Shown: piece after piece, positions 2,701 through 32,000 of the stretch | Layout of the letters: each line of letters starts with the position of its first letter | Numbering within the stretch: position 1 is the first letter of the stretch | Origin: a cyanobacterium endosymbiont of Epithemia turgida isolate EtSB Lake Yunoko | GTDB lineage: Bacteria > Cyanobacteriota > Cyanobacteriia > Cyanobacteriales > Microcystaceae | Reading direction: 5' to 3' | Assembly: GCF_000829235.1 (NCBI RefSeq) | Contig: NZ_AP012549.1 | Location: forward strand, 2,730,001-2,762,000 | DNA: 32,000 nucleotides | Made by a program: the position numbers and the translations under genes | The notes under the pieces: generated by a model | What the model saw: the letters and a program-made list of their open reading frames with translations, nothing else | Database searches by the model: none | What the model was told of the DNA's origin: nothing

Positions 2701-2858
2701 GTAAGTAAATATCAATTAATATTTAAAAAGCAAATTATTTTGGATCTATATATTGTTTTAATTAATTTATTTTACAATAAATTTTTTTATAAATGTGTTT
2801 TTGCCGAACTGCCCATATAGAATAAACTAGTTAAATACTTATTTAAGAACCCTCAGAG

Positions 2859-4275
2859 TTAAAAATTAGTAAAATTTATGAATCCATAAGATCTCTTTTA
2901 AATTAACTCAAATTTATTGTTTATATCTTCTAATGTTCCTTGCTAAAAAGATAATATTTTTTCTTATTTAAAACCTCTTTAATAGCGTTTTATCCCTAAT
3001 TAGCAAGGTTTTCTATACCACTCAATTTATTTTAACAGTCTTGATACCTAGTTCTATTTTTTTTAGAATTATTCTAAATTCTTCTGATAATTGATGTATT
3101 TCTTAGAGACGGGTTTAATTTTATGAGTCTAGTTTAACTTATATATATTTCTTTGATGCTGGATTTGTTTAATCTTAACTTGATTTTTAAGTTCTATAGT
3201 TTATTATTTAAGAGGGTTTAAATTATTTAATTAAGTATTGACTTATTTGATGATGTGATATGTATTTGCTGCCACTTAAGTTTATGACATTAATTTATTC
3301 ATATTTATAGGATTTTATTAAATATAGAGAAATATTTTTAATCTTTTTTAAAGTTTCTTCCTCCCAAGCTTCTGACTATTTTGCTCCTTCTTAAAATTTT
3401 CCTGTTTTTCAATTATCACCATCATTTTTTGATATAAATCTACTAACACTACATAATACTAAATATAGTTATAAAAACTAACTTAGAATAAGAGGGCAAT
3501 AGTCTAGAGAGAAATGATGTATAGAAAATATTATTTAGTTCCACCTCTTAGTTTACTATCTTTTTAAGATAGCATTTTCTTTTTTAAAAATTTTATAAAT
3601 CAACTTTTTAAAAACCTTCTCTTAATATAATTAGAGTTGATTCTTATGAAAATAAAATTATCAACCAATAAACTGCCTAAAAAATTAGGTCACAAATTAA
3701 AATTAAAGACCAGCAGATAGGCAAATATAGACATAAACGACAGTAGTCGATTGGACAGGTAGAGAAAATGATATTACTCAAAAAAGTTTAAGATCAAAAT
3801 ATATAGCCTTTCGAACAAGAAATATTTATTAAAAATAAAACTTTTTTAATAAAAAACTAGATAAAAGATATTCAGAAGTTGAAATAGATATATAGCTATA
3901 TCAATAAATAAAAAAAAAATTAAAAATTATATCAATGATAATGAGTTAAATTTTCCGTATTTTTTTCATGATAGTATGGCAATTAAATTTAGTATGATAA
4001 CTTCCCTGTCTTTTAATTATAGCAATTTAATCAAATGTAAACTATTTCAACTGCTACGGTTTTGATATCTGTAATTTTTGACCTAAATCTTCAAGTATTA
4101 TTTCTATTTTTTGTTCAATAACTCCATTGACGATGATTAACCCTGAGATTGACGGCGCTCTCTTCTCAAGGCAAAGCCAATCTTCGATAGTTAATTTATT
4201 GTTTTCATGGAATTTATGGTGGCTGAACCAAAATAAATCCAAGTTTCTATTCGGTCTATTTTTTTGACAAATCAA
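2859..4275 (-). mobile_element. Decayed ISL3-family transposase gene, relic copy A (many stops and frameshifts)
   Basis: Minus-strand translation ending at the stop 2861-2859 reads EKILSF*QGTLEDINNKFELI*KRSYGFINFTNF*. This matches the ISL3 transposase C-terminal signature (E-G-x-N-N-K-I-K-x-x-K-R-x-x-Y-G-F-R-N-F-x-N-F). Nt 2883-2963 align with copy B 16419-16499 at roughly three quarters identity by hand, and 3263-3294 align with 16845-16876. The upstream extent is inferred from typical transposase length. The 73-aa ORF 4054-4275 (..SGLIIVNGVIEQKIEIILE..) may be the N-terminal remnant. Confidence 0.55.
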
Positions 4276-4324
4276 ACTATTCCTAAATGGAATCTACACC
4301 ATAATTATGTTTTTGACAAACTCA
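4261..4324 (+). repeat. Two direct copies of a TTTTTGACAAA(T/C) motif 49 bp apart, possible IS end remnants
   Basis: tttttgacaaatcaaac at 4261-4277 and tttttgacaaactcatc at 4310-4326. The same core recurs at 19668-19678 and, inverted, at 19540-19550 and 26692-26702. Confidence 0.4.
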
Positions 4325-4717
4325 TCATTGATAATTAAAATTTTTCTTTATTTTATATTTTTTGTATTCACATAACAGGTTCAGTATAAACTGTTTTAAG
4401 ACATTAAATAATTGTTGACTATTATCAGTTCTTTTATTCTTTTCTAAGCTCTCCCTCTTTAAGGGATATTATACCTTTATTCTTGCCAAATTATTTATTT
4501 TTACTTCTCGGATAATCCAACAATTATTCTTTTCCTCTAATTATTGATACAGAAATTATTTCCTTAAAAGATATTTTTTAATATATTTATCAAATCTGCA
4601 ATTTTTTTACTGTTCCATCCTCTTAAACTTAAACATCAGTGCCAAAACTTATTGGTCTTATTCAATTTATTTTAAATAATTAAGATCAACCTGCTAATTA
4701 TTTTTAAATAAATTAAA

Positions 4718-8930: not shown

Positions 8931-9359
8931 AGAGGACTGCTTTAGGAGAACAGGGGTAATGGTGAGACAACATAGCAATCACCATTTAGAACTTGCCAGT
9001 AGGATTAATCACTGGTCATTTAGTTTAAACTTATTCTTTCGTTATTGCTTGATTTTCTAGTTCAAAATTTTCATTACTCTGTTTGAAAAAAAGTAGTAAG
9101 AATTTTTTCAACAAGAATTACAACAATGTATGACTGATGATGTATCTCAGTATGATACATCATTAATGACCACGATTACATTATAATCAGTTCTGCTATT
9201 AGTCGTGTAAAACTATATATTACTGATGTTACATAGTGATATAACTAATATTTTTTGTTCTATATAAATAGGTTTAACCTTCTAAATAAATATTGGCATC
9301 TTATATTATTAGATATTCATTAATATATATATGGTTACTTTGCTGTTGCTACTTTGCGA

Positions 9360-9722
9360 GGGTTACTTAAGCAGTCATTTATTATGAAATTGATGTTTGA
9401 GAATTTAAAAAGTAATTAATTTTTTATTTTTTGTATTTTCGCGTAAAACCCTAAAATTACAGGAGCTGAGTAACAATAGATGTTAGCAAATTTAACTTCA
9501 AGAGTCGGATATTTAATCCATAACAAATGTCTATAATTTAACAGAAAAAAGCTTTAATACAGACGTTAATATAATGAGTATCCTGAATGTTTAAAGCATA
9601 TTTATAGTAACTTTTATAAGAAGAAACACTAGATATCACTTTATAAAAAATAATAACAATAAATTGGGATTGACCAAATAACTATAGCAGTATATTCAAG
9701 AATATAGTAATTTTAATACTAA
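9360..9722 (+). mobile_element. Decayed, 5'-truncated ISL3-type transposase relic, copy D
   Basis: Nt 9649-9720 (aataataacaataaattgggattgaccaaataactatagcagtatattcaagaatatagtaattttaatact) align with the C-terminal block of copies A-C. The translation is NNNNKLGLTK*L*QYIQEYSNFNT. A second anchor near 9367 (acttaagcagtca) resembles copy A acttaagtggcagca. purL begins at 8930, so at most ~790 nt of the element can remain. Confidence 0.4.
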
Positions 9723-10035
9723 AATTTTTACTAAATTTAGTATTAAGTGGATCTAAAAAAAACAACATAAATACTACTTAAATAAGTTTTAAAAAATAGT
9801 TATAATCAGGCTTACAACCTACAAAGAGATTAAAGATAAATTATGCTTATATCAATATAAATTTTTAGGATTATATCAATATTTTAATTCACAAAATAAT
9901 ATAGAAGACTTGAAAGCCGAGAAACTAAATATAGAGAGAAAAGTAGGAACATTTATTTAAAAGTATATGTAATACTCTAGCTACTTTCAAATAAATGTTC
10001 CCTGAACCCGTAATATAGTGTTTAGCAAGATTTAA

Positions 10036-10806
<771 letters not shown>

Positions 10807-14291: not shown

Positions 14292-14699
14292 TGTTTAGGA
14301 ATAAGTGTAGTAAAGTCATATAAAACATTGTAAATATGATAAATTTTTAGGTTAAGACGGTTAACCCTACTATTTATGGTTGGGTTTGTATAAGCGATAT
14401 GTTAACAAAAAATTAACTTTTAAACAGGGGAAGCAATTAGCTGATTTTTTAAGGAGGGATATTCATATATTTTATATATAAAATAATTTAAAGAGCCACA
14501 AAAGATAAAATGTCTAAGGTTTTGGAGAAAAAATATTAAAAAAGACATAAAAAATGTATTAAAGTAACTAGTTTTTAAAGATAAGAGAATTTTAAATAAA
14601 AATAAAAGTAAAAATAGTAGTTTATTCTGAATTAGTTATTTTAATAATAAACTTTTTCTAAGAAAACAATTTATTTTACTTCAAAATAAATAAAATTGG

Positions 14700-15018
14700 A
14701 CTAAAAAAGTATAAATTAAAGTAGGTTTATAGAACATCATCGATTATATTAAAAATTGACTAAATTAAAAACGAAGTTAGAATATTTTTTTAGTAAAGCC
14801 TAGATCAAGTATTAAGATTAGTAAAATAGGCTGATTGGTATTAAAAATTTTATTACTTGCACCTAATTGTGGAATAATCAGGTGTTAAGTTGGAGTAATT
14901 ATTTTCTATTCTTACTCAAAGGACAACTAAATAGATAGGAAAAAGTATTAACAATACATTAAAGCTTATTAATAGGAGAGCTTATGTATTTATAAATCTT
15001 GTATTTTTAAATTTTTAA
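14700..15018 (+). mobile_element. Decayed, 5'-truncated ISL3-type transposase relic, copy C
   Basis: Nt 14938-15018 translate to GKSINNTLKLINRRAYVFINLVFLNF*. They align base-for-base with copy B (EGINNKFEVDKKRAYGLRKFVNFKL*). The upstream stretch acctaattgtggaataatcaggtgtt matches copy B aaacctgtgggatggttatatgttg, and another anchor lies near 14711-14750. clpB starts at 14291, so at most ~730 nt can remain. Confidence 0.5.
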
Positions 15019-15213
15019 AATTTAAAATTTAGCATATAATTAGTTAATTTTATATCCTAAATCAGGTGTAACCATTTATTTAAAATTTATGAAAATTATA
15101 TTAATTTTAAAAAATAAATTAGTTTGACTAAAAATTTTATTATTGGTTTTGTAAAAATATTTTTGTGACTATTAATTTATTATCAGATTTTTAAATTATT
15201 CGACTTATTTTAA

Positions 15214-15420
15214 TTAACGGCTAAATTTTTGAGCTTGAGCAACCAGTCCGGCACTTACATAACGTCCATAATTATCGAGACGATTTTGTTGAGCAGCACG
15301 AAAAGGAGATACAAAAGTATCAACTAAGCCAGAACTCATTATCATGACAGTAGTCGCGAGAATGATATAGTTACGAATAACGATAACGTTTTCGTTAACA
15401 GTAGTTGTTTTGCTAAACAT
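15214..15420 (-). CDS. Hypothetical small protein (68 aa) with one hydrophobic segment
   Basis: AAGGAG lies 10 nt upstream of the ATG (minus strand accaaggagtaaccaccaagATG). G+C is visibly higher than in the surrounding AT-rich tract. There is a predicted TM stretch YIILATTVMIMSSGLV. I recognise no family. Confidence 0.45.
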   Translation of the reverse strand: MFSKTTTVNENVIVIRNYIILATTVMIMSSGLVDTFVSPFRAAQQNRLDNYGRYVSAGLVAQAQKFSR

Positions 15421-15501
15421 CTTGGTGGTTACTCCTTGGTATGGACGCCTTTACTATATAGGAAACAAATTGGTGATGTCAGTCCCAAAACCCTAGATAT
15501 C

Positions 15502-15531
15502 AGGGGTCGTAGTCGTGCCCCTTTTCTTTTT
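15502..15531 (+). terminator. Intrinsic-terminator-like hairpin plus T-tract with no intact upstream gene
   Basis: The sequence is aggggtcg-tagt-cgtgcccct followed by ttttcttttt. The stem has GGGG/CCCC plus G-U and two further pairs. The G-U pair becomes C-A on the minus strand, so the structure is better on the + strand. Confidence 0.35.
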
Positions 15532-15684
15532 AGAAGTGGAATTAAGTAGAAATTTTTCCATCCTTAATATAATTACCCTACCTACATAGGGGGTTTTAGA
15601 AGTCTCCTATTGACAAAGAGTATTCAAGATTAAGGCATCGCTGTCATTGGAGCAGTACGTACTACTATACTGATTTAATATGAG

Positions 15685-16323: not shown

Positions 16324-16365
16324 ACCCTAATGTTATATAAAACTGAAATAATGTAGAATCAACTA

Positions 16366-17700
16366 GTGACGTGCAAAAACAAAACACTTTAAAGTTTAAA
16401 ATTCACAAATTTTCTAAGTCCATAAGCTCTCTTTTTGTCAACCTCAAATTTATTGTTAATACCTTCTATTTTTTCTGCAAGATAGATAATATTTTTTTCA
16501 ATGCAACATATAACCATCCCACAGGTTTTTAGCTATGATAAATAAGTTTTAAAATTCTAAAGCTAGTTTCAATATTCCTGATAACTATTTTTCGGTGTTT
16601 TAAAAACTTGTTCTATATTACTGTAGTTTTAAAATAACTAACGAGGTGTTATATACTTAGTTTGACTTAGCTTTTTATTATTTTTTTGAGTTATTATTAA
16701 TTAATATATGTTTGTTGTTATTTACCATTAATTTATTATCAATACTAAATTTTTAACTATTATTTTTAAGCTCTTTATTTTGTATTTAAATTATTTTTCG
16801 TTAAGTACCCAATTGAGCATTTACTTGTTTCATTCAATGGAATAAATTTGTTGCTACTTCAACTTATGATATTGATTGATAATTTTTTTAAAAAAAAATT
16901 TTTAAAATCTATATTGCTATTTTTAATTTTAGTAAAAATATGTTTTCAAAAAACGTTTAGCTATTCGTTGTCTCTATTTTTTTATTTCTATAATTATTAC
17001 ACTGACTTTTAACACAAAAGAATAACTTTTGGGGTTTTAAAAACGGTATTTTTATTAAAAATTTACTATTTTTGTAGGTTTTTGAAAAACCTACAATTCT
17101 TTATCTAATCTAAATTGTAGAGTATCATCTCTATTTTTTCTTAAATTACTTTATTATTTTTATTTATATTCTTAATGTTACTAGGTAAGAATATTTTAAA
17201 GATTATGGCTTTAATTTTTTTAGTATCTATCTTAAAAATAACAGTTAAAATTTACTGCAAATTTATTTACGTATTGATTGTATCTAATTTAATAATAATC
17301 TTTTTCAAGATAAATAGATTATATATCAAAGATAATTTCATAGTAATTAAAGTGATTAATTTTTGATTAACATATTTTTTCACTAGTTAAATACAATAAA
17401 TATAAGTTGCTGTTAATTTTAATTATCACCCATTTTTTAGATCTAAAAAATGGGTGATAAATGGTTAAGTTTTATAAATTTAGAGTCTCATTTATTAAGC
17501 CGAGTTAAATATCTAATATTATAGATATAAGTTAAATCAGGGTGCTAATCTTAACATAATTTAACTTCAAAATAAACATTAATAGAGTATTAGATGTATA
17601 ATAATTACAGCTTTTTAGAAGGCGATTGTTGATATTCAAACTTTGTATCCATGTTGTAACTTTTTACATAAAAGGTTCGCTAAAACCAAGTTAATTATAA
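16366..17700 (-). mobile_element. Decayed ISL3-family transposase gene, relic copy B, filling the tmk-like / thyA-like spacer
   Basis: Minus-strand translation ending at the stop 16391-16389 reads LKTCGMVICCIEKNIIYLAEKIEGINNKFEVDKKRAYGLRKFVNFKL*. The final 36 codons have no stop, so this is the best preserved of the copies. It is homologous to copy A at two anchors. The 1388-bp spacer matches the size of a full ISL3 element, but the ends are not defined. Confidence 0.55.
17423..17460. repeat. Perfect 38-bp palindrome ttatcacccattttttAGATCTaaaaaatgggtgataa
   Basis: The reverse complement is identical to the sequence, checked base by base. It is centred on AGATCT, lies inside IS relic B and sits 252 nt upstream of the thyA-like ATG. 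Confidence 0.9.
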
Positions 17701-17711
17701 GTAATTAATTC

Positions 17712-19220
17712 ATGAGAATCACTCAATCAAAATATCAAGTTGAATATATTCCTCATTATCAACCTAATCAACTGATCTGTGGTCATGGACAGACTGCTAT
17801 CATTACTGGATGGACAGTTCGACAGTCAGTAGCTAAACGTTTAAACCCAGAAGACTATGCAGTTATTGGTAATTTATATAGTCCTACTAGGGGAATTAGT
17901 CCCTTAATTCGTAATTTGTTAGCTAACCCTCATGTCCGATATTTAGTGATTTTACAGGCAACAAAAGAAGATAAAAATTCTGGAGGATGTCAATGTTTAT
18001 TAGATTTCTTACAACAAGGTTTTAGACAAGGAATCAGCGATATAGGCAGAAATATATGGGTAGTCAATTCGAAGATAACTGGATATATTGACATTGAAAT
18101 TCCTGCTGATGTCTCAGAGAATTTGCGTCAATCTTTAAAATTCAAAGAAGCAAAATCAATTGAAGAAGTAATGAATATAATAAAAGAATTTAATCAATTT
18201 AAAATAGAACCTTGGGGTGAACCGTTAACTTTTCCTGAAAGAAAAAGTTCTCCAACAGTTTTACCAGGTCCTAGATATGGCCATCGGATTGAAGGAAAAA
18301 CTATTGCAGAAACCTGGGTTAAAGTATTACATAGAATTAAAACAATAGGAACAATTAGACAGACAATCTATGGACAATGGCAAGAATTAATTGATCTAAT
18401 AGCTATTGTTACCGATGAACCACCAGAGTTTTATTTTCCTGAGCCTAATTATTTACCTATTAAAAGAAATTATCTCAAAGATTATATTGAACAAATATTA
18501 GACGATGCACCCAAAAAAGAAGGAGTAAAATATACATACGGACAACGGTTAAGATCATGGTTTGGACAAGACCAAATTGAACAACTAATTAATAAATTGG
18601 CAGGAGATATTGATTCATCAAGAGCCGTAATGTCATTGTGGGATGTAAACGATTATGAAGATAGTGATAGTCCTCCTTGTCTTAATCATATTTGGGTGAG
18701 AATTGTTGATAAAGAATTATCTTTAACTGCTACATTTCGTAGTAATGATATGTTTTCTGCTTGGCCATCTAATGCAATGGGATTAAGATTTTTGCAGCAA
18801 TTTATCCAAGATAAAATTATCACAAAATCCAATTATAGTCTTACTTTAGGACCTCTAATTATTATTAGTCAAAGTGCACATATTTATAGTGACTGCTGGG
18901 AACATACACAACAAATTATTGATACTGAATATACAAAAATAAATCAGAGACAAAATTTTAATGACCCCAGTGGCAACTTTGTGATTTCGGTAAAAGATAA
19001 TCGTATTGTTGTTGAACATTTAACTCCAGGTTCAGGAGAAATTATCAACTGTTATTCAGGTAAACTTGCTCATAAACTGTATAAAAAAATTGCCTTAAAT
19101 TCCCCTAGTATTCACATTGAACATGCGATGTACTTAGGGAAAGAATTACAAAAAGCAGAATTATGTCTAGTTAAGAAATTAAATTGTTACCAACAAGATC
19201 TACCATTAAATTTTTCATAA
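17712..19220 (+). CDS. Three-domain thymidylate-synthase-like protein: MtrA-like N-domain + ThyA-like core + DUF4346-like C-domain
   Basis: 502 aa. Residues ~25-105 (AIITGW...AVIGNLYSPTRGISPLIRNLLANPHVRYLVIL...LLDFLQQG) follow the MtrA pattern (AVITCG...[32 protein letters not shown]...). The core has YGQRLR (276-281), SPPCLNH with Cys323 (nt 18678-18680), RSND (343-346), Asn354 exactly 11 residues after the Arg as in E. coli R166/N177, and SAHIY (388-392). The C-terminus DPSGNFVISV...HAMYLGKELQKAE resembles DUF4346. Domain names are from memory, not from an HMM run. Confidence 0.8.
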   Translation: MRITQSKYQVEYIPHYQPNQLICGHGQTAIITGWTVRQSVAKRLNPEDYAVIGNLYSPTRGISPLIRNLLANPHVRYLVILQATKEDKNSGGCQCLLDFLQQGFRQGISDIGRNIWVVNSKITGYIDIEIPADVSENLRQSLKFKEAKSIEEVMNIIKEFNQFKIEPWGEPLTFPERKSSPTVLPGPRYGHRIEGKTIAETWVKVLHRIKTIGTIRQTIYGQWQELIDLIAIVTDEPPEFYFPEPNYLPIKRNYLKDYIEQILDDAPKKEGVKYTYGQRLRSWFGQDQIEQLINKLAGDIDSSRAVMSLWDVNDYEDSDSPPCLNHIWVRIVDKELSLTATFRSNDMFSAWPSNAMGLRFLQQFIQDKIITKSNYSLTLGPLIIISQSAHIYSDCWEHTQQIIDTEYTKINQRQNFNDPSGNFVISVKDNRIVVEHLTPGSGEIINCYSGKLAHKLYKKIALNSPSIHIEHAMYLGKELQKAELCLVKKLNCYQQDLPLNFS

Positions 19221-22053: not shown

Positions 22054-22134
22054 ATTAATAGACACGATCATCACTGCCAATAACTGATAGGACTGCTTGA
22101 GTTATTCTTCATTACAGAATTTTATCTCGCGTTT

Positions 22135-22599
22135 ATGGCAACTATAACTTTATCTCCTAACGTACCTGATATTTCAATTGATGATTACTGTGTTTTTGGC
22201 TTAGCAACCTGTTATCTAAAAGAAGATGGAGAATTTTTAAAAATTTAGATAATAGAACTTATTCCTTCTGCTGTATTAGAAGCTATTTTTAAAGGTATTT
22301 CTACTTCCTATCAATTAGCCTGTGCAAAATCGGTAAGGAAAGTTATAGAAAGAAAAGTATTACACAAACCCTCAGGGTTTTCTGATAACGCCAAATTTTG
22401 TTTTAATTGTACTGAAAGAATCGCAGCAACAGTACGAAGTTATAAGATACGAACGGAAGCAAAATCTCATATTCCTGAAGGAACTTCCAGAGATTATTTT
22501 AACTATTCAGTAGAAAGAAAGCGAGTTCCTAATGCAATTAATGTTGTACAGAAAAAAGATAATGTAAAGCAGCATTCTCATGCACGCCAAATACTTTAA
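22135..22599 (+). pseudogene. Conserved-hypothetical gene interrupted by a single in-frame TAG (codon 38)
   Basis: The ATG at 22135 opens MATITLSPNVPDISIDDYCVFGLATCYLKEDGEFLKI, then TAG at 22246-22248. The same frame then continues for 116 more codons (IIELIPSAVLEAIFKGISTSYQLACAK...RKRVPNAINVV...) to TAA at 22597-22599. There is no frameshift. Confidence 0.6.
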
Positions 22600-23903: not shown

Positions 23904-23982
23904 AGGTTAGTATTAGATAGGATGGTAAACCGATAGTTGGGAATCGGGAACAGAGAATAGTATAAGGGAAAAGATAAAAAAA

Positions 23983-24375
23983 ATGTCAGATATTAATTAT
24001 TTTAAAGACCTAAAAATTTAGCAAAAAGGTTCGTATATTACCGGAAAGCGCTGTCTTCTCCCTAAAAAACTTCAAAAAGTTCGATATATTATAGGAGTTA
24101 ACAAAAAAGGAGTGTTGCCATAATTTTGGATAAGATAGCAGAAGGATGTAGAAAACGATATAGGGGAGAATGCATTGGATTTTCTACATGGTGCAAAGTT
24201 CTGTTATATAATGATTAACCAGAATTCCTTCAATAACCTGAGAGTGTGTTAGGTGTTTATTATCGAACTCAACAAGAAACTACGCTTAACCATCACCTAT
24301 CCAGCTAGTAGTGGACAAAATTTAATCAAAATTTTGCGGGTAATTGATTCTTTTGAGTTGACGGTTTATCATTAA
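23983..24375 (+). pseudogene. Decayed reading frame with four internal stops; weak uroporphyrinogen-III synthase (HEM4)-like resemblance
   Basis: One frame reads MSDINYFKDLKI*QKGSYITGKRCLLPKKLQKVRYIIGVNKKGVLP*FWIR*QKDVENDIGENALDFLHGAKFCYIMINQNSFNNLRVC*VFIIELNKKLRLTITYPASSGQNLIKILRVIDSFELTVYH*. The segments ITGKRCLLPK and ITYPASSGQNL recall HEM4 motifs (L-x-G-K-x-I-L-x-P-R; I-x-F-x-S-x-x-x-V-x-N). The identification is tentative. Confidence 0.25.
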
Positions 24376-24798
24376 GTTACAACTCCTGTTGTTTTAAAAA
24401 AAGAAGTGATTGTGTCCTTGTTCTTTTTGTTTTTAGGGAAGAAGCTAAACACAAATTTTTAAAAATATTTACTGTAATCAAACCATACTTACATATCATT
24501 CTTCAACCCACTAAGTAGTAATTTGTAAATAAAAGAGGTAGGTATTATAAATCTCTTATGTTATTTTTTATTCATTAGAATATGGTTAATTCTTTTTAAT
24601 TTAACATGAGAGATTATTTCACCCTATAGTAGTTTATTTTAAAGATTCTTAATTTTATCTGGTCAAGAAAACAACGGGAACATCTACACACATTGTTTCA
24701 GAAAAGAGACTAAACCCAAACTTATTAACTACTTGCTCACTCACAGGCATAAAGTCTACTGTATGTAAATATGTCCAGTAATTTTAATTAAATTTGAC

Positions 24799-24843
24799 TT
24801 AAAGAATGAGAATTACAAATTGATTGTAATTCTCATTCTTTAA
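24799..24843. repeat. Perfect 20-bp-stem hairpin (ttaaagaatgagaattacaa / ttgtaattctcattctttaa, 5-nt loop)
   Basis: Read directly from the sequence. It lies ~90 nt beyond the stop of the dead minus-strand gene 24934-25425. Confidence 0.85.
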
Positions 24844-24933
24844 ATGTTAATAAAATAATTTTTTCTATGGGTTAGTTTGCTTAGATTTTTATCTTAATTT
24901 CACTCCATTATAATTAATATTATTTCTAGTTGA

Positions 24934-25425
24934 TCATACATCAACAATTTTATTCAATGCTATCATTGGTCTAGCTATCGGCAAGAGAAACATATGAGCA
25001 TACTTTTGATAATACTGGCTAGTCAAATCGGTAATTTTTAAAAATTCTTCTTCTCAGGCTTGACAGATTAAATCCCACCCATGCTCATCATACAACAAGG
25101 AATCCCCACAGCCTTCTCTATACAAAGTTGACTTTCTAAACAATTAGAGTCTGTTTGTTTTTAAAAAATCTTGTATTTTTTGCCGAGTTGTTTTGGCGTC
25201 TATTTTCAGACTATCAGATTGGATTATTGCGACATTAAATTTTCGTAGACGCTAAATAAAATCTTTTGTAATGTAAGACTTTAGTAAATACCGAGGGACA
25301 GTAGTAACTACCATTAATAAAAAACTAGGATTTAAGGTTTGAATAGCAGCATCTAAAGAAGATAGACGAACTGTATAACCAAAAACATGACCGGTTTCAG
25401 CTAAATAGATCATAGGTTGAGCCAT
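24934..25425 (-). pseudogene. Unidentified gene with three in-frame stops and no frameshift
   Basis: 164 codons in one minus-strand frame read MAQPMIYLAETGHVFGYTVRLSSLDAAIQTLNPSFLLMVVTTVPRYLLKSYITKDFI*RLRKFNVAIIQSDSLKIDAKTTRQKIQDFLKTNRL*LFRKSTLYREGCGDSLLYDEHGWDLICQA*EEEFLKITDLTSQYYQKYAHMFLLPIARPMIALNKIVDV*. The stops are at 25254-25252 (TAG), 25146-25144 (TAA) and 25056-25054 (TGA). Confidence 0.5.
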
Positions 25426-25563
25426 GGTATTAAGTGTCTTGATTCTGTTGTTCTATAACCACGACTATGTCAACTTATCATATTGACAATTAACTAACTT
25501 AACTGGTCTCTGGAATCAATAACTGTCACAGTCAACAAATATTTATTGTCAAGACATAATAAG

Positions 25564-25635
25564 TGGGTCGCCTGGGATTCGAACCCAAGACCAATCGGTT
25601 AAAAGCCGAGTGCTCTACCGCTGAGCTAGCGACCC
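25564..25635 (-). tRNA. tRNA-Lys (anticodon UUU)
   Basis: The minus strand reads GGGTCGC-TA-GCTC-AGCGGTA-GAGC-A-CTCGG-CTTTTAA-CCGAT-TGGTC-TTGGG-TTCGAAT-CCCAG-GCGACCC-A. It forms a clean cloverleaf with a 7-bp acceptor stem and a TTCGAAT T-loop. CCA is not encoded. The top pair of the anticodon stem is a C-U mismatch. Confidence 0.9.
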
Positions 25636-25663
25636 GCTGTGCCTTATTTACACACTCTCGCAA

Positions 25664-25692
25664 ATGATAACATCGATTTTAGAGAAGTGCAA
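25664..25692 (-). promoter_or_regulatory. Candidate sigma70-type promoter for tRNA-Lys
   Basis: The minus strand reads TTGCAC (25692-25687), a 17-nt spacer, then TATCAT (25669-25664). It ends 28 nt upstream of the mature tRNA 5' end. Confidence 0.3.
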
Positions 25693-25782
25693 GCCCTATT
25701 GAAGAACTTACCTAAAACCTCTAGGGGATTGACACAGTTAGGGTTAGAAGACACTAGGAAGTTGTGACTTTTTAAAAAACAC

Positions 25783-26655
25783 TTAAATTGATTCGACACT
25801 CATTTCAAACATTGCCTCGCAAGTTGTCCCAGGGTCGAGTTCCGTTAGTTTTTTTCCTGTATTCAAGGCATTACGGGGTGCTGTCCAAGGTTCAAGACAC
25901 ACATAATCTTTTCCTTTGAGAGTCCAAAAGACAAAGGTAGAATAGATATCTGACCAACTGAGGACTAATTTTAACTTTCGGTGATTATCAGTCATAGTAG
26001 CTAAAGAACGAGTTAAAGACTGAAACCCTACATCGATTTCATCTTGGTCAAAGTTAAAGGTTCCATCATAGGAAACAATCTTTTTGGTCGCTTGATCTTG
26101 ATATTCTGAGGAGGGAATATCAAAGATAACTTTACTTTTATCAGGAATATAATAGTAAGGGTGAAAGCCAAAAGAAAAAGGCATTTTTTTCTCAGACTTA
26201 TTAGTATATTTTTGACGAATAATTAAAGAGTTCCCCTTAAGTTCATAGGTAAAATCTAATTGAAACTCGAAGGGATAAACTAGGAGGGTTTGTTTATTAC
26301 TCTTTAGGGTTATAGTTAAACTAGCACAGTTATCTGTTCCTTGTTGAGTTACTTCCCAGGGTAAATCTCGAGCAAACCCATGTTGTTTAAGAGTGTAAGT
26401 TCTGTCGCGATAAATATAGGTATTATCATGAATATTTCCACAGATAGGGAAGAGAATAGGAACTCCACCCCGAATACTCATTTCTGGTTTAGAAAACCGT
26501 TCCTTATCTAAGTAGAGAACATCTTGACCTTGGATTTTCCATAGAAGAATAATGCCTCCTCGTTCAGGAACAACTGTTATTTGAGAGATAGCTTCAGAGT
26601 CTGAGAGAATATAGGTTAAATATTGCTCTTTTTTGAAAGTAACTGAAAATGCCAT
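25783..26655 (-). CDS. Aldose 1-epimerase family protein
   Basis: 290 aa with GGVPILFPICGNI, HGFARDLPW and FGFHPYY. These are characteristic of the galactose mutarotase-like / glucose-6-phosphate 1-epimerase-like fold. Confidence 0.82.
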   Translation of the reverse strand: MAFSVTFKKEQYLTYILSDSEAISQITVVPERGGIILLWKIQGQDVLYLDKERFSKPEMSIRGGVPILFPICGNIHDNTYIYRDRTYTLKQHGFARDLPWEVTQQGTDNCASLTITLKSNKQTLLVYPFEFQLDFTYELKGNSLIIRQKYTNKSEKKMPFSFGFHPYYYIPDKSKVIFDIPSSEYQDQATKKIVSYDGTFNFDQDEIDVGFQSLTRSLATMTDNHRKLKLVLSWSDIYSTFVFWTLKGKDYVCLEPWTAPRNALNTGKKLTELDPGTTCEAMFEMSVESI

Positions 26656-27106
26656 AACTTTTATTGTTGACTCACTTTATAAACTAGACTTATGTCAAAA
26701 ACTTCATTATATAATTAACTGGGAATAAATAAAAGACAAGAACAGGTAAACAGTAAACAAAATCATAATAATTATTATCTCTTTAGAATTAAATTACTTC
26801 AGAAGTAAACCATTATTACTTCTATAATTTACACTTTTTATTTAAGTTGAATAAATGGGAAGTGAGGAAAATATCCTGTTACAGAGTTTTAAGAATTACT
26901 TTTAGATGAACGGTTAAAAAACTTAGTAAGAATAGTTAAAATTTTTTGAATAAACACTTTAATGGTACGGTATGTTTAGAAGCATTCAAACGTAAAATAT
27001 CATCAAAACGTTATTTTTTCTTAAAAAGAATTGCCTTTTATAATTATTTTTGCCGTACCCTAAACAATGATTGGTAATATTTCTTCACACCTCTTGCAAT
27101 CTGTCT

Positions 27107-28297
27107 ATGTCCATTACTCCCCAAAGTAAAGACAAAGTTTTCAAACTCAGAAATAATCGTACGGACAAAGAACTCTGCAGTGAGTGTGGATTATGTGATA
27201 CTCACTATATCCGCCATGTTTAAAGACACTTGTGCCTTTCTTAACCAACAAATCAGCAAACTTGAAGAGATAGCTCATGGTCGTAGCCACAATTTAAATG
27301 ACGAAAATGACTGGTATTTTGAAGTTTATCAAGATGTGATAGCCGCGCCCCAAAATAGCCCATCTAGGTATCACAATGGACAGGCATTGTTAGTATCATT
27401 GCTTGTGGCATGTTTACTTAAGGATGGGTAGAGGGGGTTGTCTGTCTTCAGAATACCATAGAAGACCGTTTTTAACCCATGTCTGTGATTACTAGGACAA
27501 CTGAAGAAATTTTAGCTACTAGGATGAATAAACCTAATTTTATCCCGAAAATCTTCTATTTTGGAAGAACTGAAAAAATTCGGGACAAAATTACTATTAG
27601 TAATTGGGTTGGGTTGTCAAATTAAAGCGTTATAAGCTGTAAAAAGAAAATTATCTTTGGAAAAATTTTATCTTTTGGGGATTACTTGTGTTTACAATGT
27701 AACCGGTAACAAATCAGGAAAATTCCTTGAGACCACGAGTAAATCTACTGAAACCATTGTTAATTATGAATTTATGCAGGACTCTCGTGTTCATTTAAAA
27801 TACCAAAATGGGTCGATTTTAAAAATTATTTTTGTGATTTCAAAACCAATAAACTGAAAGATATTTTTACTACCTTTGGCATGAGTTGTTTTAATTATAT
27901 TAATTTTAGACGATTTAGTGGTCGGCTATATAAGGGCATAATTCGGTTCGCAATGAGTTACCGTTTGCAATGACACTAGAGAGAAAATGTTAGGGTTGCT
28001 CAAAAACTAACTAGATACTCAAGCCCTAATTTCTAAGAGGGATAGAAAACAGGCAGTATAACAAAGTATTTTTACTTATAAGAAAGAAGTTACTCTGCCC
28101 ATGTGGGCAGCAAAGTTAATAGGGATAATCGTAGAAAAACTTGGTGTCAAAGGATTAGAGTATGCCGCTTTTCTATGGACTATCATTTAACCCGCAATTA
28201 TCTTTATGTGAAACGCAACTATCCCCGAAAATTATCTGATCATGTTCCAGAATTTGCTAAGCGAATTCTTTGGCAATTGATATTACTAAAGAATTGA
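27107..28297 (+). pseudogene. bciB: Dead FrhB-family chlorophyll-biosynthesis reductase gene (BciB ferredoxin-dependent 8-vinyl reductase / HCAR-like)
   Basis: Pieces in shifting frames read MSITPQSKDK..KELCSECGLCDTHYIRHV (stop 27218-27220 after a 1-nt shift), then KDTCAFLNQQISKLEEIAHGRSHNLNDENDWYFEVYQDVIAA. Next comes PI*VSQWTGIVSIIACGMFT*GWVEGVVCLQNTIEDRF*PMSVITRTTEEILATRMNKPN, with stops at 27365, 27419 and 27473. Further pieces are VIGLGCQIKAL, KFLETTSKSTETIVNYEFMQDSRVHLKY, DDLVVGY, VTLPMWAAKLIGIIVEKLGVKGLEYAAF and NYLYVKRNYPRKLSDHVPEFAKRI. They are colinear with my recollection of Synechocystis slr1923-type proteins over ~397 codons. Confidence 0.75.
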
Positions 28298-28541
28298 AAA
28301 TATTTGATTTAGTCACTCAGTAACTTAGTTATTAATTCCACTGCTTAGATCGCACTCAAAGTTCAGTGAGCACATGAGTATTTAAACTTAGCAAACCATC
28401 GTTAACGACCTAAAATTTGTCGGCACTAGCCTTAGCCGTTCACTTATATCTGTACTGACGAACATATCTTTTGAGTATTGACATCCGTTACAATGCCTAA
28501 AATAGCAATTTTGAAAAAAAGATTTATTTGGTCATTATCCT

Positions 28542-29918
28542 ATGCCCAAGAGCCCTTTAAAACAGGCAATACATAGACTTCAGTCAGAACAAAGAAAATG
28601 GGCGGCTGTAGGTCAATATACGCCTAAACAGGTGAATCGATGGTTTAAATGGTTATCTCCTGGCCTCTTGGTCAAACGCTGGTTGCTTATCAGTATCACC
28701 GGTCTAATCTTAACTTTTTTAGGGTTAGCTGTTTTTCTTAAGTTAACCCCAGTGTATCGCTTGCTAGAGTGCATCTCTACCCTACTAGAATTTCTGACCA
28801 CTTATGTTCCTAATTATATTTCTGGTCCGTTAGCGATTTTATTAGGGCTATTTTTACTGTTATGGGGGCAAAGTCGTACCGTAGGATCAATTACCGAAGC
28901 ATTGCATCCTGAAGGAAATCAAGAACTTGTTGATCGTCTTCTAGCCCACCGTCGTCGAAACCGAGGACCGAAAATAGTAACCATTGGAGGAGGGACTGGC
29001 CTTTCAACTCTGTTAAGAGGACTTAAACAATATAGTAGTAATATAACCGCCATTGTCACCGTAACCGACGATGGTGGCTCATCCGGGCGGCTAAGACGAG
29101 AAATTGGTGTTCTTCCTCCAGGAGACATCCGCAACTGTGTTGCTGCTTTGGCAGATGAAGAAAAACTTTTAACCGAATTGTTTCAATATCGTTTTCAGGC
29201 TGGGGATGGACTCACTGGGCACAGCTTTGGTAACTTGTTTCTTACAGCTTTAACCGACATTACCGGAGACCTAGAACAGGCGATTGCAGCCAGTTCTAAA
29301 GTTTTAGCTATACGAGGGAAAGTTTTACCCGCTACCCTTAATGATGTCCGTCTCTGGGCAGAATTAAGTGATGGACGGTTCATTGAAGGGGAATCTAATA
29401 TTACTGAAGCCAGGGGAAAAATTGAACGTATTGGCTGTATTCCTGCTCATCCTTTAGCTTTACCAGCGGCTATGAATGTTATTAAAGATGCTGATTACAT
29501 TATCATCGGGCCTGGTAGTTTGTATACAAGTGTGATTCCTAATCTTTTGGTTCCAGATATTAGAAATGCTTTGATTAAAGCAAAGGTTTCCCGGATCTAT
29601 ATCTGTAATATTATGACCCAACCCGGGGAGACTGACGGCTATACTGTTAGTGATCATCTAAAAGCCATTGATCATGTTTGTGAGCAACGGTTATTTGATG
29701 CGGTTTTGATTCAACGTAGACCTCCCTCTCCGAAAGCGTTAAAACGTTATGCCCTAGAAAACTGTCATCCTGTTTTTCCTGATCGTGAAGAGGTGGCTAA
29801 ATTAGGCTGTCGTGTTATTTTAGGTAATGTGATGACCGAGGACGAAATTACCGGAAAGGTTAGCCATGACCCTCAGCGATTAGCTAAAGTTTTGTTACGC
29901 TGGTATAGTAGCAAGTAA
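28542..29918 (+). CDS. YvcK/CofD-like (UPF0052, gluconeogenesis-factor family) protein with N-terminal membrane segments
   Basis: It has [35 protein letters not shown] and [17 protein letters not shown]. Two or three hydrophobic helices lie in the first ~110 aa. Confidence 0.85.
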
Positions 29919-29930
29919 TTTTAATTAATA

Positions 29931-30404
29931 GTGATTATCGAGTTACCCTCAGCAAAGGCGACCCTAGGCCTAGGAGAGCAATTAGGAAAATTATTACCGG
30001 CTCGAACGGTTATTCTACTAGAAGGGAATTTAGGAGTAGGAAAAACTACTTTGGTGAAAGGAATTGGGAAGGGGTTGAACATAAGAGAACTGATTGTTAG
30101 TCCTACATTCACCCTCATTAACGAATACACTCGAGGACGGTTACGATTGTATCATTTAGACTTATATCGTCTAGAACCTCAAGAAGTTGAGAAGTTATAT
30201 CCCGAACTGTATTGGGAATATCAAGAAGTTCCTCCAGGAATTACCGCAATTGAATGGGCGCAACGACTTCCTTATCAACCGTCAGATTATTTAGAGATTC
30301 AGTTAATAAACTCACCTAAACTAGTCCGTCAAGCTATTCTCAAGGAGGTTGGGAATCTCTCTTTAAAAGCTAGTTTTTGGGGCAGCTTAGGGCAATTGAT
30401 ATAA
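29931..30404 (+). CDS. tsaE: tRNA t6A37 threonylcarbamoyl-transfer ATPase TsaE
   Basis: GTG start 12 nt after the yvcK-like stop. It has Walker A GNLGVGKTTLVKG, SPTFTLINEY and HLDLYRL. Confidence 0.88.
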   Translation: MIIELPSAKATLGLGEQLGKLLPARTVILLEGNLGVGKTTLVKGIGKGLNIRELIVSPTFTLINEYTRGRLRLYHLDLYRLEPQEVEKLYPELYWEYQEVPPGITAIEWAQRLPYQPSDYLEIQLINSPKLVRQAILKEVGNLSLKASFWGSLGQLI

Positions 30405-30528
30405 GATAAAACCCGAGGAAAAAATAAATGAGGTATCAGGGTAATCAACGATAGTGCTCAACGGATGTTGACCCGCCCTTTTTTCTTTAGCTTATTCTAA
30501 AGATTTTTTACATGTTGTTTAAATTAAA

Positions 30529-30642
30529 TTAATCAAGACTAATATTACCGCGTTTGTATTGTAAATAAGCCGCAACAAATAAACCGGCTAAAGTGATGGG
30601 GATTAATCCTAAAACAATACCTAACAGTAAGGGTTCAATCAC
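30529..30642 (-). CDS. petG: Cytochrome b6-f complex subunit 5 (PetG), 37 aa, absent from the ORF track
   Basis: The minus strand reads aaggagaaacact-GTG and encodes (M)[36 protein letters not shown]. It is near-identical to the cyanobacterial PetG pattern ([33 protein letters not shown]..). The length of 114 nt is a multiple of 3. Confidence 0.85.
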
Positions 30643-30823
30643 AGTGTTTCTCCTTAATCAGACTTAATAGATCGTTCCCCATTGTACTGGCAATTGAACA
30701 ATCATAAAACCAGACATAGACAATTATTTAAACTTCTAGACCCCCTGACGTGTAATCACTAAGAGTGTTAAAGTAAAGAACATGTAACCCTGAAAAACAG
30801 GCAACCCCCTTTTTGGAGTTCTA

Positions 30824-31147
30824 ATGGCATTTAATTTTGATTTTTTCGCTTCTGAACAAGGAGAACAAGACGCTAACGCTCTCATTCAATACTTACGACA
30901 ACAGCACCCCGAGGCATTAGCTCGTATAGCTCAATCTGCTAGCCCCGAAATCAGGCAGATCATCACCCAAAACGTACAGGGACTAGTGGGAATGCTTCCA
31001 TCTGAGGATTTTAACATTCAAGTAACAACAGATAGGGAAAATTTGGCTAATCTTTTAGCTTCTGCTATGATGACGGGCTATTTTTTAGGACAGATGGAAC
31101 AACGAAAAAACCTAGAAGCTAACTTATCTAATACAGACTCTTTGTAG
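30824..31147 (+). CDS. DUF760-family protein (cyanobacteria/plastid lineage)
   Basis: 107 aa. LIQYLRQQHPEALARIAQSASPEIRQIITQNVQGLVGMLP and ASAMMTGYFLGQMEQR are typical DUF760 strings. Confidence 0.75.
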   Translation: MAFNFDFFASEQGEQDANALIQYLRQQHPEALARIAQSASPEIRQIITQNVQGLVGMLPSEDFNIQVTTDRENLANLLASAMMTGYFLGQMEQRKNLEANLSNTDSL

Positions 31148-31219
31148 TCGAATATTTAAACAGTGGACAGTCAACAGACATAAGTTTTTTAAACAGATGA
31201 CTGCTGACTGATAGCTTAT

Positions 31220-31315
31220 CTATCCTCCTTTTGCAAAACTTCCCATCACTAAGGCAGATAATAAAATTCCAGGGAACAATAAGGCAAACAGTAAAGCAAG
31301 TTGACTAATTGTCAT
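31220..31315 (-). CDS. Possible 31-aa single-helix membrane peptide
   Basis: The minus strand reads gaggaaaacaacaATG and encodes MTISQLALLFALLFPGILLSALVMGSFAKGG*. GAGGA lies 8 nt upstream of the ATG. I recognise no family. Confidence 0.3.
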   Translation of the reverse strand: MTISQLALLFALLFPGILLSALVMGSFAKGG

Positions 31316-31540
31316 TGTTGTTTTCCTCTGATTTAACGTATTGTTCTGTTAATCTAGCCTATTTTTTTAGTAATTTTTGCCTGTTAATTATATTTTAAGC
31401 TCGACTTTGATTAAGTTACCCATCGATTGTAATAATACTATGTTTTATTAGTTTTGCCAGTGAAAATATTCTATTTTTAGTTTGGTTTAGATTATCATTT
31501 AAAAAACTATTTCTATGATAAAAACATGGAAAGATTGCTT

Positions 31541-32000
31541 TTACTCATTCATGTTTTTATAAGTCGCCACCGCAGAAGGTGATATACGATTAAGATAACG
31601 AAAGATCCAATATTTCAAAACTGTATCTAAGATTACGGGAAAGGTCGCGATAAATAGAAAATTAAACTCTTGATTTTCTGGGAGTCCAAAGTGACGAGAA
31701 ACTCCTTGTAAAATTACCTCCCATCCGTGGGGAGAGTGAAACCCCACAAACATATCGGTAAAGAGAATAATCAAAAAAGCTTTAGCTGGATCACTTAACC
31801 CATAAAGGATTTCATCAAGAAAGGATCTAACCACTTCTATTTCTTTTTTACTAGTTACTATGACTACAAAGAAAGAAACAAAAGAGAAAATATCTGCGAA
31901 AATATTGGCAATAGAATCAACTCCCTGATGTCGATATTCATCAGTTATTTCTTCGGCTTTATGTTTAATTTTCTCCCTAATTTTTTCGGGAGAAAATTCT
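31541..32000 (-). CDS. pxcA: PxcA/CemA-family proton-extrusion (envelope membrane) protein, 5' end outside window
   Basis: The frame stays open upstream of the listed GTG to the window edge ([63 protein letters not shown]...). It has the hallmark [11 protein letters not shown]. Confidence 0.85.

Follow-up and report, generated by a model that had tools for sequence, protein, structure and literature searches.

A non-functional bciB relic in the nitrogen-fixing, non-photosynthetic spheroid body of Epithemia turgida

Introduction

What has become of a chlorophyll-biosynthesis gene in the genome of EtSB, the cyanobacterial spheroid body of Epithemia turgida, and what does its state say about the lifestyle of this endosymbiont? 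A change of lifestyle can be read from raw sequence alone when a dead chlorophyll gene lies near intact housekeeping and cytochrome b6f genes, and the initial annotation of the locus, made from the letters only, proposed such a case: a destroyed gene for a BciB/HCAR-like reductase in a cyanobacterium that has given up, or is giving up, photosynthesis. The EtSB genome is reportedly the one described by Nakayama et al. in PNAS in 2014, and spheroid bodies (diazoplasts) are a well-studied model of a cyanobacterium turning into an N2-fixing organelle, whose biology is established.

Here, we present an analysis of this locus in a 32,000-nt stretch of the EtSB genome (the window). This exact bciB pseudogene was already published in 2017, and the inference of lost photosynthesis is right but known. 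EtSB and RgSB were both listed by Nakayama and Inagaki (2017, Sci Rep 7:13075, Table S3; PMC5638926) as having a bciB pseudogene with stops and frameshifts (S, F); the EtSB entry is the same object as the one studied here, and our lesion maps agree with these entries for both genomes. Beyond that report, we add a base-level catalogue of the lesions; seven further copies and a comparison across lineages, which suggests that the gene lost its constraint at around the time when the freshwater spheroid bodies radiated and was disrupted independently afterwards; codon-position evidence of neutral decay; and an intact copy in spheroid-body gene order, on the metagenome contig L082, that may help to date the loss of pigment synthesis.

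Results and Discussion

The locus descends from a bciB gene

The remnant and its neighbours are arranged as follows.

25783-26655, minus strand: aldose 1-epimerase gene, intact, the divergent upstream neighbour; the order epimerase-bciB-yvcK is characteristic of spheroid bodies
27107-28297, plus strand: bciB pseudogene, a full-length colinear remnant of 1191 nt versus 1197 nt in the intact gene; bciB encodes the ferredoxin-type 3,8-divinyl (proto)chlorophyllide 8-vinyl reductase
28542-29918, plus strand: gene of the yvcK/CofD family, intact, the downstream neighbour and our control for purifying selection
30529-30642, minus strand: petG (cytochrome b6f subunit 5), intact, 37 codons with a GTG start (PF02529, E=1.2e-23)

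The remnant has kept both the ATG at 27107 and the ancestral stop codon TGA at 28295-28297. In a three-frame translation, the pieces of an FrhB-family protein are colinear and alternate between two frames, with stops within. Thus, the proposal that a remnant can be followed from the start to the C-terminus was borne out by both this translation and the alignment described below.

A protein search with the repaired translation returned 3156 proteins at an E-value of 1e-10 or lower. The best match was a cyanobacterial BciB (E=1.5e-174, 68% identity, full length), and the repaired translation spans 98-100% of cyanobacterial proteins of 396-400 aa at 59-68% identity. Every match listed carries PF04422 and PF04432, and several of those listed bear the name 3,8-divinyl protochlorophyllide a 8-vinyl-reductase (ferredoxin). 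As the intact reference, we used the 398-codon bciB of a free-living relative, Unicellular cyanobacterium SU2 (L003:3489-4685), the 398-aa product of which is 65% identical to the repaired translation. This orthologue has both Pfam domains, FrhB_FdhB_N and FrhB_FdhB_C, and matches the structure of HCAR (5dqr_A) with E=5.7e-142; its matches to archaeal FrhB structures are at 1e-23 or weaker, and it scores below the NCBIfam cut-offs for frhB. Because the matches to BciB and HCAR are strong and those to archaeal FrhB weak, the window sequence is, on the evidence of these comparisons, a descendant of the BciB/HCAR branch of the FrhB family and not a functional member of it. The assignment to a reductase of the BciB/slr1923 type with a plant homologue in HCAR therefore holds, with E=1.5e-174 for BciB and E=5.7e-142 for 5dqr.

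Among characterized proteins, Slr1923 (BciB) of Synechocystis sp. PCC 6803 belongs to the same family with the same architecture (FrhB_FdhB_N plus FrhB_FdhB_C, ∼400 aa), and the window sequence is derived from an orthologue of this enzyme; compared by family and architecture, Slr1923 is intact and active while the window copy has 15 disabling lesions. Slr1923 is reported to be a ferredoxin-dependent 8-vinyl reductase (Islam et al. 2008, cited in PMC5638926 and PMC12903740). Arabidopsis HCAR (7-hydroxymethyl chlorophyll a reductase, PDB 5dqr) is a full-length homologue of the SU2 orthologue; however, it is a plant enzyme of the chlorophyll cycle with a different substrate, whereas the cyanobacterial orthologue group is an 8-vinyl reductase.

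Fifteen lesions disable the gene

We mapped the lesions with a codon-aware MAFFT nucleotide alignment to the SU2 reading frame and re-checked the bases of the stops. Relative to the intact orthologue, the remnant has six frameshifting indels and nine stops in the reference frame, i.e., 15 disabling lesions, and the indels match exactly the frame changes of the three-frame translation. All are on the plus strand.

27219-27223: +1 insertion in a T run that puts TAA 27221-27223 into the ATG frame; common to the E. adnata spheroid body (SB)
27349-27367: -1 deletion at ∼27349, then the stops TAG 27356-27358 and TAG 27365-27367 (alignment, bases checked)
27419-27421: in-frame TAA at codon 106, CAA in the reference (alignment, bases checked)
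27473-27475: in-frame TAA at codon 124, CAA in the reference (alignment, bases checked)
∼27536: +1 insertion, frameshift at codon 144 (translation and alignment)
27633-27635: in-frame TAA at codon 177 (alignment, bases checked)
∼27827: net -1 frameshift at codons 241-242 (translation and alignment)
∼27905: -2 deletion, frameshift at codon 268 (translation and alignment)
27939-28061: four reference-frame stops, TAA 27939, TGA 27954, TAA 28008 and TAA 28059 (bases checked)
∼28165: -1 deletion, frameshift at codon 355 (translation and alignment)

With six frameshifts and nine stops, an uninterrupted frame able to encode the enzyme is absent at the bciB locus of the window. In addition, conserved residues have been altered by substitution, as in FGW, which has become FGS and is followed by a stop. 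The in-frame stops that had been placed at 27365, 27419 and 27473 in the initial annotation are exact in all three coordinates, and, where it mentioned several further shifts, the alignment has frameshifts at ∼27349, ∼27536, ∼27827, ∼27905 and ∼28165. Its early frameshift is also real, namely the +1 insertion at ∼27219; however, the stop that it put at 27218-27220 is not there, as these bases read GTT, and the ATG frame first meets a stop at TAA 27221-27223.

Several of the indels lie in or beside short homopolymer runs, e.g., the T run at 27219, as would be expected if the gene were functional and the lesions were sequencing or assembly errors. However, in a separate read assembly (Logan, run SRR29904087), a 6147-bp contig is 100% identical to window positions 25608-31754, including the whole remnant, although the material of this run may be related or even of the same kind, so that the two do not count as fully independent biological replicates. 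A second run contains the same YvcK protein. Because the separate assembly is identical across the locus, the lesions are not assembly errors, and most of them are also common to the E. adnata SB, which is a different genome. Moreover, the nine stops come from base substitutions and not from indels, the substitution pattern is neutral (see below), and the published annotation likewise gives the gene as a pseudogene (PMC5638926, Table S3). Errors as the cause of the lesions are, consequently, so improbable that this explanation is effectively refuted already.

A functional enzyme might still be made from the remnant by recoding, that is, by programmed frameshifts or stop-codon readthrough, or as split subunits. 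Nothing specific speaks for this beyond the retained length and ATG. Such a mechanism would have to bypass 15 lesions comprising all three stop types and shifts in both directions in a genome region in which the neighbouring genes use the standard code; furthermore, codon positions 1 and 2 evolve as fast as or faster than position 3, the lesions differ among sister lineages, and conserved residues have changed, as in the FGW motif. We give recoding or split subunits next to no credence.

bciB has decayed in every spheroid-body genome examined

The lesion comparison covered six further spheroid-body genomes (E. adnata, R. gibba, R. gibberula, R. sterrenbergii, R. musculus and EpiScrs1) plus a Logan-run copy. 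In all spheroid-body genomes examined, the order epimerase (minus), bciB (plus), yvcK (plus) is conserved, and none has an intact bciB. The gene is decayed in six of the six further genomes, five of which have three to nine stops and one to eight indels, while the copy in EpiScrs1 is heavily eroded. The counts of reference-frame stops and indels per copy are as follows.

EtSB (window): 9 stops, 6-7 indels
E. adnata SB: 7 stops, 8 indels
R. gibba SB: 6 stops, 3 indels
Logan copy close to R. gibba SB: 7 stops, 3 indels
R. musculus SB: 4 stops, 7 indels
R. sterrenbergii SB: 9 stops, 7 indels including a 79-nt deletion
R. gibberula SB: 3 stops, 1 indel

Many lesions are common only to EtSB and the E. 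adnata SB, and the TAA at 27473-27475 (codon 124) is common to the copies of EtSB, the E. adnata SB, the R. gibba SB and Logan run SRR31326947. A few shared stops are at odds with the tree; these look like parallel CAA-to-TAA changes. The lesion comparison found no lesion common to all seven freshwater copies; their common ancestor may therefore still have had an open bciB reading frame.

The remnant in the EpiScrs1 spheroid body (L163:2561-4000) has a GC content of 26% and internal deletions, and can be aligned only in patches. In EpiScrs1, either decay was faster or inactivation was earlier than in the freshwater Epithemia/Rhopalodia endosymbionts.

The remnant evolves without constraint

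On the stem shared by all copies, substitutions are distributed 26:13:83 over codon positions 1:2:3, which is a signature of purifying selection. In contrast, the terminal branches of the pseudogenes (three branches, with SU2 as the outgroup) have 84:51:36, a distribution that differs from that of the stem with p=6e-15 in a chi-square test. Pairwise differences among the spheroid-body bciB copies are similarly flat (0.17-0.22, 0.11-0.13 and 0.14-0.16 at positions 1, 2 and 3, respectively), while those of the control gene yvcK among spheroid bodies are 0.013-0.028, 0.004-0.015 and 0.10-0.14. Based on the flat bciB differences set against the third-position values of yvcK, all three codon positions of the remnant diverge about as fast as synonymous sites. 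The branch of the window copy has 48 GC-to-AT changes versus 20 AT-to-GC changes, and the GC content of bciB falls from 40% in SU2 to 35% in the window copy. The neutral substitution pattern and the 15 disabling lesions together confirm that the gene is destroyed. The comparison of the copies suggests that selection ceased to constrain bciB roughly when these freshwater spheroid-body lineages radiated, and that the disabling lesions then accrued independently.

It could be argued that the relic has been co-opted, be it as a small protein, as a regulatory RNA or as a spacer or promoter for yvcK. An automatic gene caller does call a gene within it, and a full-length relic persists in most spheroid-body lineages.

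27180-27431, plus strand: 83-codon ORF with a GTG start within the bciB remnant, called as a gene; its counterpart on the Logan contig is at L081 1573-1824, and it has no Pfam match

However, this ORF is one frame of the bciB remnant and is bounded by frameshift lesions. The region is ∼16-18% divergent among spheroid bodies, i.e., at or above the level of synonymous sites in yvcK, and in EpiScrs1 it is heavily eroded with internal deletions. Low coding density together with persisting gene fragments is, moreover, reported genome-wide for spheroid bodies. Co-option in any of these forms is, accordingly, very unlikely, and the ORF at 27180-27431 is a pseudogene artefact and not a separate gene. 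The call of this ORF also illustrates how pseudogene fragments inflate the counts of "hypothetical proteins" in these genomes.

From a dead gene to lost photosynthesis

In our assessment, it is close to certain that the feature is a non-functional bciB relic in the obligate N2-fixing, non-photosynthetic spheroid body of Epithemia turgida. According to published studies, spheroid bodies have lost photosystems I and II and their RuBisCO is pseudogenised (PMC5638926), BciB is absent from them (PMC12903740), and they lack chlorophyll autofluorescence (PMC5638926, PMC11070190). In EtSB, each of the ten Chl-a genes is either a pseudogene or missing, and bciB is the only broken Chl-a gene in RgSB (PMC5638926). 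That the dead copy is unreplaced by a second bciB or a bciA-type reductase rests on the literature, as the sequence analysed here covers 32 kb of EtSB. The proposal in the initial annotation that photosynthesis has been abandoned thus agrees with these studies (PMC5638926, PMC12903740, PMC11070190); in contrast, its alternative wording, that photosynthesis is still being given up, does not stand because the loss is complete and old.

We suggest that the decay proceeded in four steps. Following the literature, the diatom host would have supplied fixed carbon and the photosystems would have been lost, so that chlorophyll became useless. Purifying selection on bciB then ceased, as the codon-position data show, and AT-biased point mutations and indels of 1-2 nt accrued at the neutral rate, as seen in the lesions and substitutions of the window copy. 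Finally, because deletion is slow in spheroid-body genomes, a relic of near-full length is left between two intact housekeeping genes. The bciB locus is thus a slowly eroding relic without any functional product.

Spheroid bodies retain thylakoids and a complete respiratory chain (PMC11070190), with which the intact petG is consistent. We infer that cytochrome b6f genes such as petG are intact because the cyanobacterial b6f complex serves in respiration as well; in line with the literature, respiration via b6f would supply ATP and consume oxygen for nitrogenase. A related N2-fixing endosymbiont with a reduced genome, UCYN-A/nitroplast (Candidatus Atelocyanobacterium thalassa), has also lost oxygenic photosynthesis (PMC11070190). 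However, UCYN-A retains photosystem I (PMC11070190) and chlorophyll is therefore still useful to it, whereas spheroid bodies are without both photosystems and the chlorophyll pathway.

An intact bciB in spheroid-body gene order

Among intact proteins, the one most similar to the repaired translation (P0001, 68% identity) is encoded by the 2121-bp metagenome contig L082 (ENA ERZ27283219 k119_64505), on which an intact 398-codon bciB occupies positions 813-2009 with a divergent aldose epimerase gene upstream. This adjacency of epimerase and bciB is absent from SU2 and Cyanothece UBA12306: in SU2, bciB lies 5.3 kb upstream of yvcK among unrelated neighbours, with the epimerase gene elsewhere, and in Cyanothece UBA12306, bciB adjoins neither yvcK nor the epimerase gene. 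Over its whole length, including the AT-rich intergenic spacer, L082 aligns to the spheroid-body locus at 81-83% identity, and, with SU2 as the reference, it has 122 derived sites in common with the spheroid-body copies. We found no lesions in the bciB of L082. The substitutions on its own branch are 7:7:16 by codon position, which differs from the pseudogene branches (p=7e-4) and not from the constrained stem (p=0.15); thus, this copy still looks constrained.

Counts of derived sites favour a group of L082 and the freshwater spheroid bodies with EpiScrs1 outside (25 vs 7), whereas neighbour-joining on the concatenated data places L082 outside all spheroid bodies with 85% bootstrap support, and both placements are confounded by the differences in rate and composition between functional copies and pseudogenes. 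L082 sits at the base of the spheroid-body clade or slightly within it. We tentatively raise the possibility, which we consider rather doubtful, that L082 represents an undescribed chlorophyll-making lineage at or just inside this base, either an early-diverging endosymbiont or the closest free-living sister. If that is true, then together with the lack of a common lesion it would mean that bciB was inactivated several times independently, after endosymbiosis had begun. The scan of metagenome contigs with P0001 gave nothing closer than 80% identity and no longer contig of the L082 lineage.

Genome context of the window

Outside the bciB locus, the window looks like a spheroid-body genome. Its YvcK shares 98% identity with that of the Rhopalodia gibba endosymbiont and 96% with that of R. 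gibberula, followed by free-living strains of the Cyanothece/Crocosphaera type at 89% or less; over 6 kb of conserved gene order, the nucleotide identity to sequenced spheroid bodies is ∼90%. The GC content of the window is 32.8% versus the 33.4% published for EtSB (PMC5638926). The housekeeping genes in the window include sbcC, purF, purL, fabG, clpB, tmk, dut, glk, yvcK, tsaE and pcxA, among others, together with one tRNA-Lys. Two neighbours had been put forward as intact: petG is indeed so, with 37 codons and the PF02529 match at E=1.2e-23, and for pxcA (pcxA) this applies to the C-terminal part, which has an open frame to the window end, the rest of the gene lying beyond the window. We considered sbcC (109-2700) and pcxA (31541-31834) as truncated genes and rejected this, since both frames are simply open to the ends of the window.

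The GTG start of petG is also present in free-living SU2 and two Rhopalodia endosymbionts. The EtSB gene is one codon shorter near the C-terminus, with GNISLD versus GNKFSLD or SNKFSLD in the two Rhopalodia endosymbionts.

In the 32 kb, there are 21 ORFs with a length of 80 aa or more, and the GC content falls to 22-30% over long stretches. AT-rich spacers at 2701-4717, 8979-10044, 14292-15684, 16324-17711 and 23904-25560 have a GC fraction of ∼0.22-0.30 and no ORF of 80 aa or more, and their longest stop-free segments match no Pfam family; in a Pfam scan of ten stop-free intergenic segments, petG was the sole match. These spacers presumably are the remnants of genes eroded beyond recognition, which fits the reported low coding density.

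A conserved ORF of ∼154 codons at 22084-22596 (plus strand), which matches no Pfam family, is interrupted in EtSB by an in-frame TAG at 22246-22248. Its orthologues in the R. gibba and R. gibberula SBs have CAA at this site, are open and have ∼73% amino acid identity; the EtSB copy is probably another recent pseudogene or truncation. Finally, a 502-aa ORF at 17712-19220 (plus strand) has a thymidylate-synthase-like domain (PF00303; TIGR03283 below the cut-off), a C-terminal PterinBD-DUF4346 domain and a weak MtrA-like match at the N-terminus, and it lies among tmk, dut and a dCMP-deaminase gene in a small cluster for dTTP synthesis.
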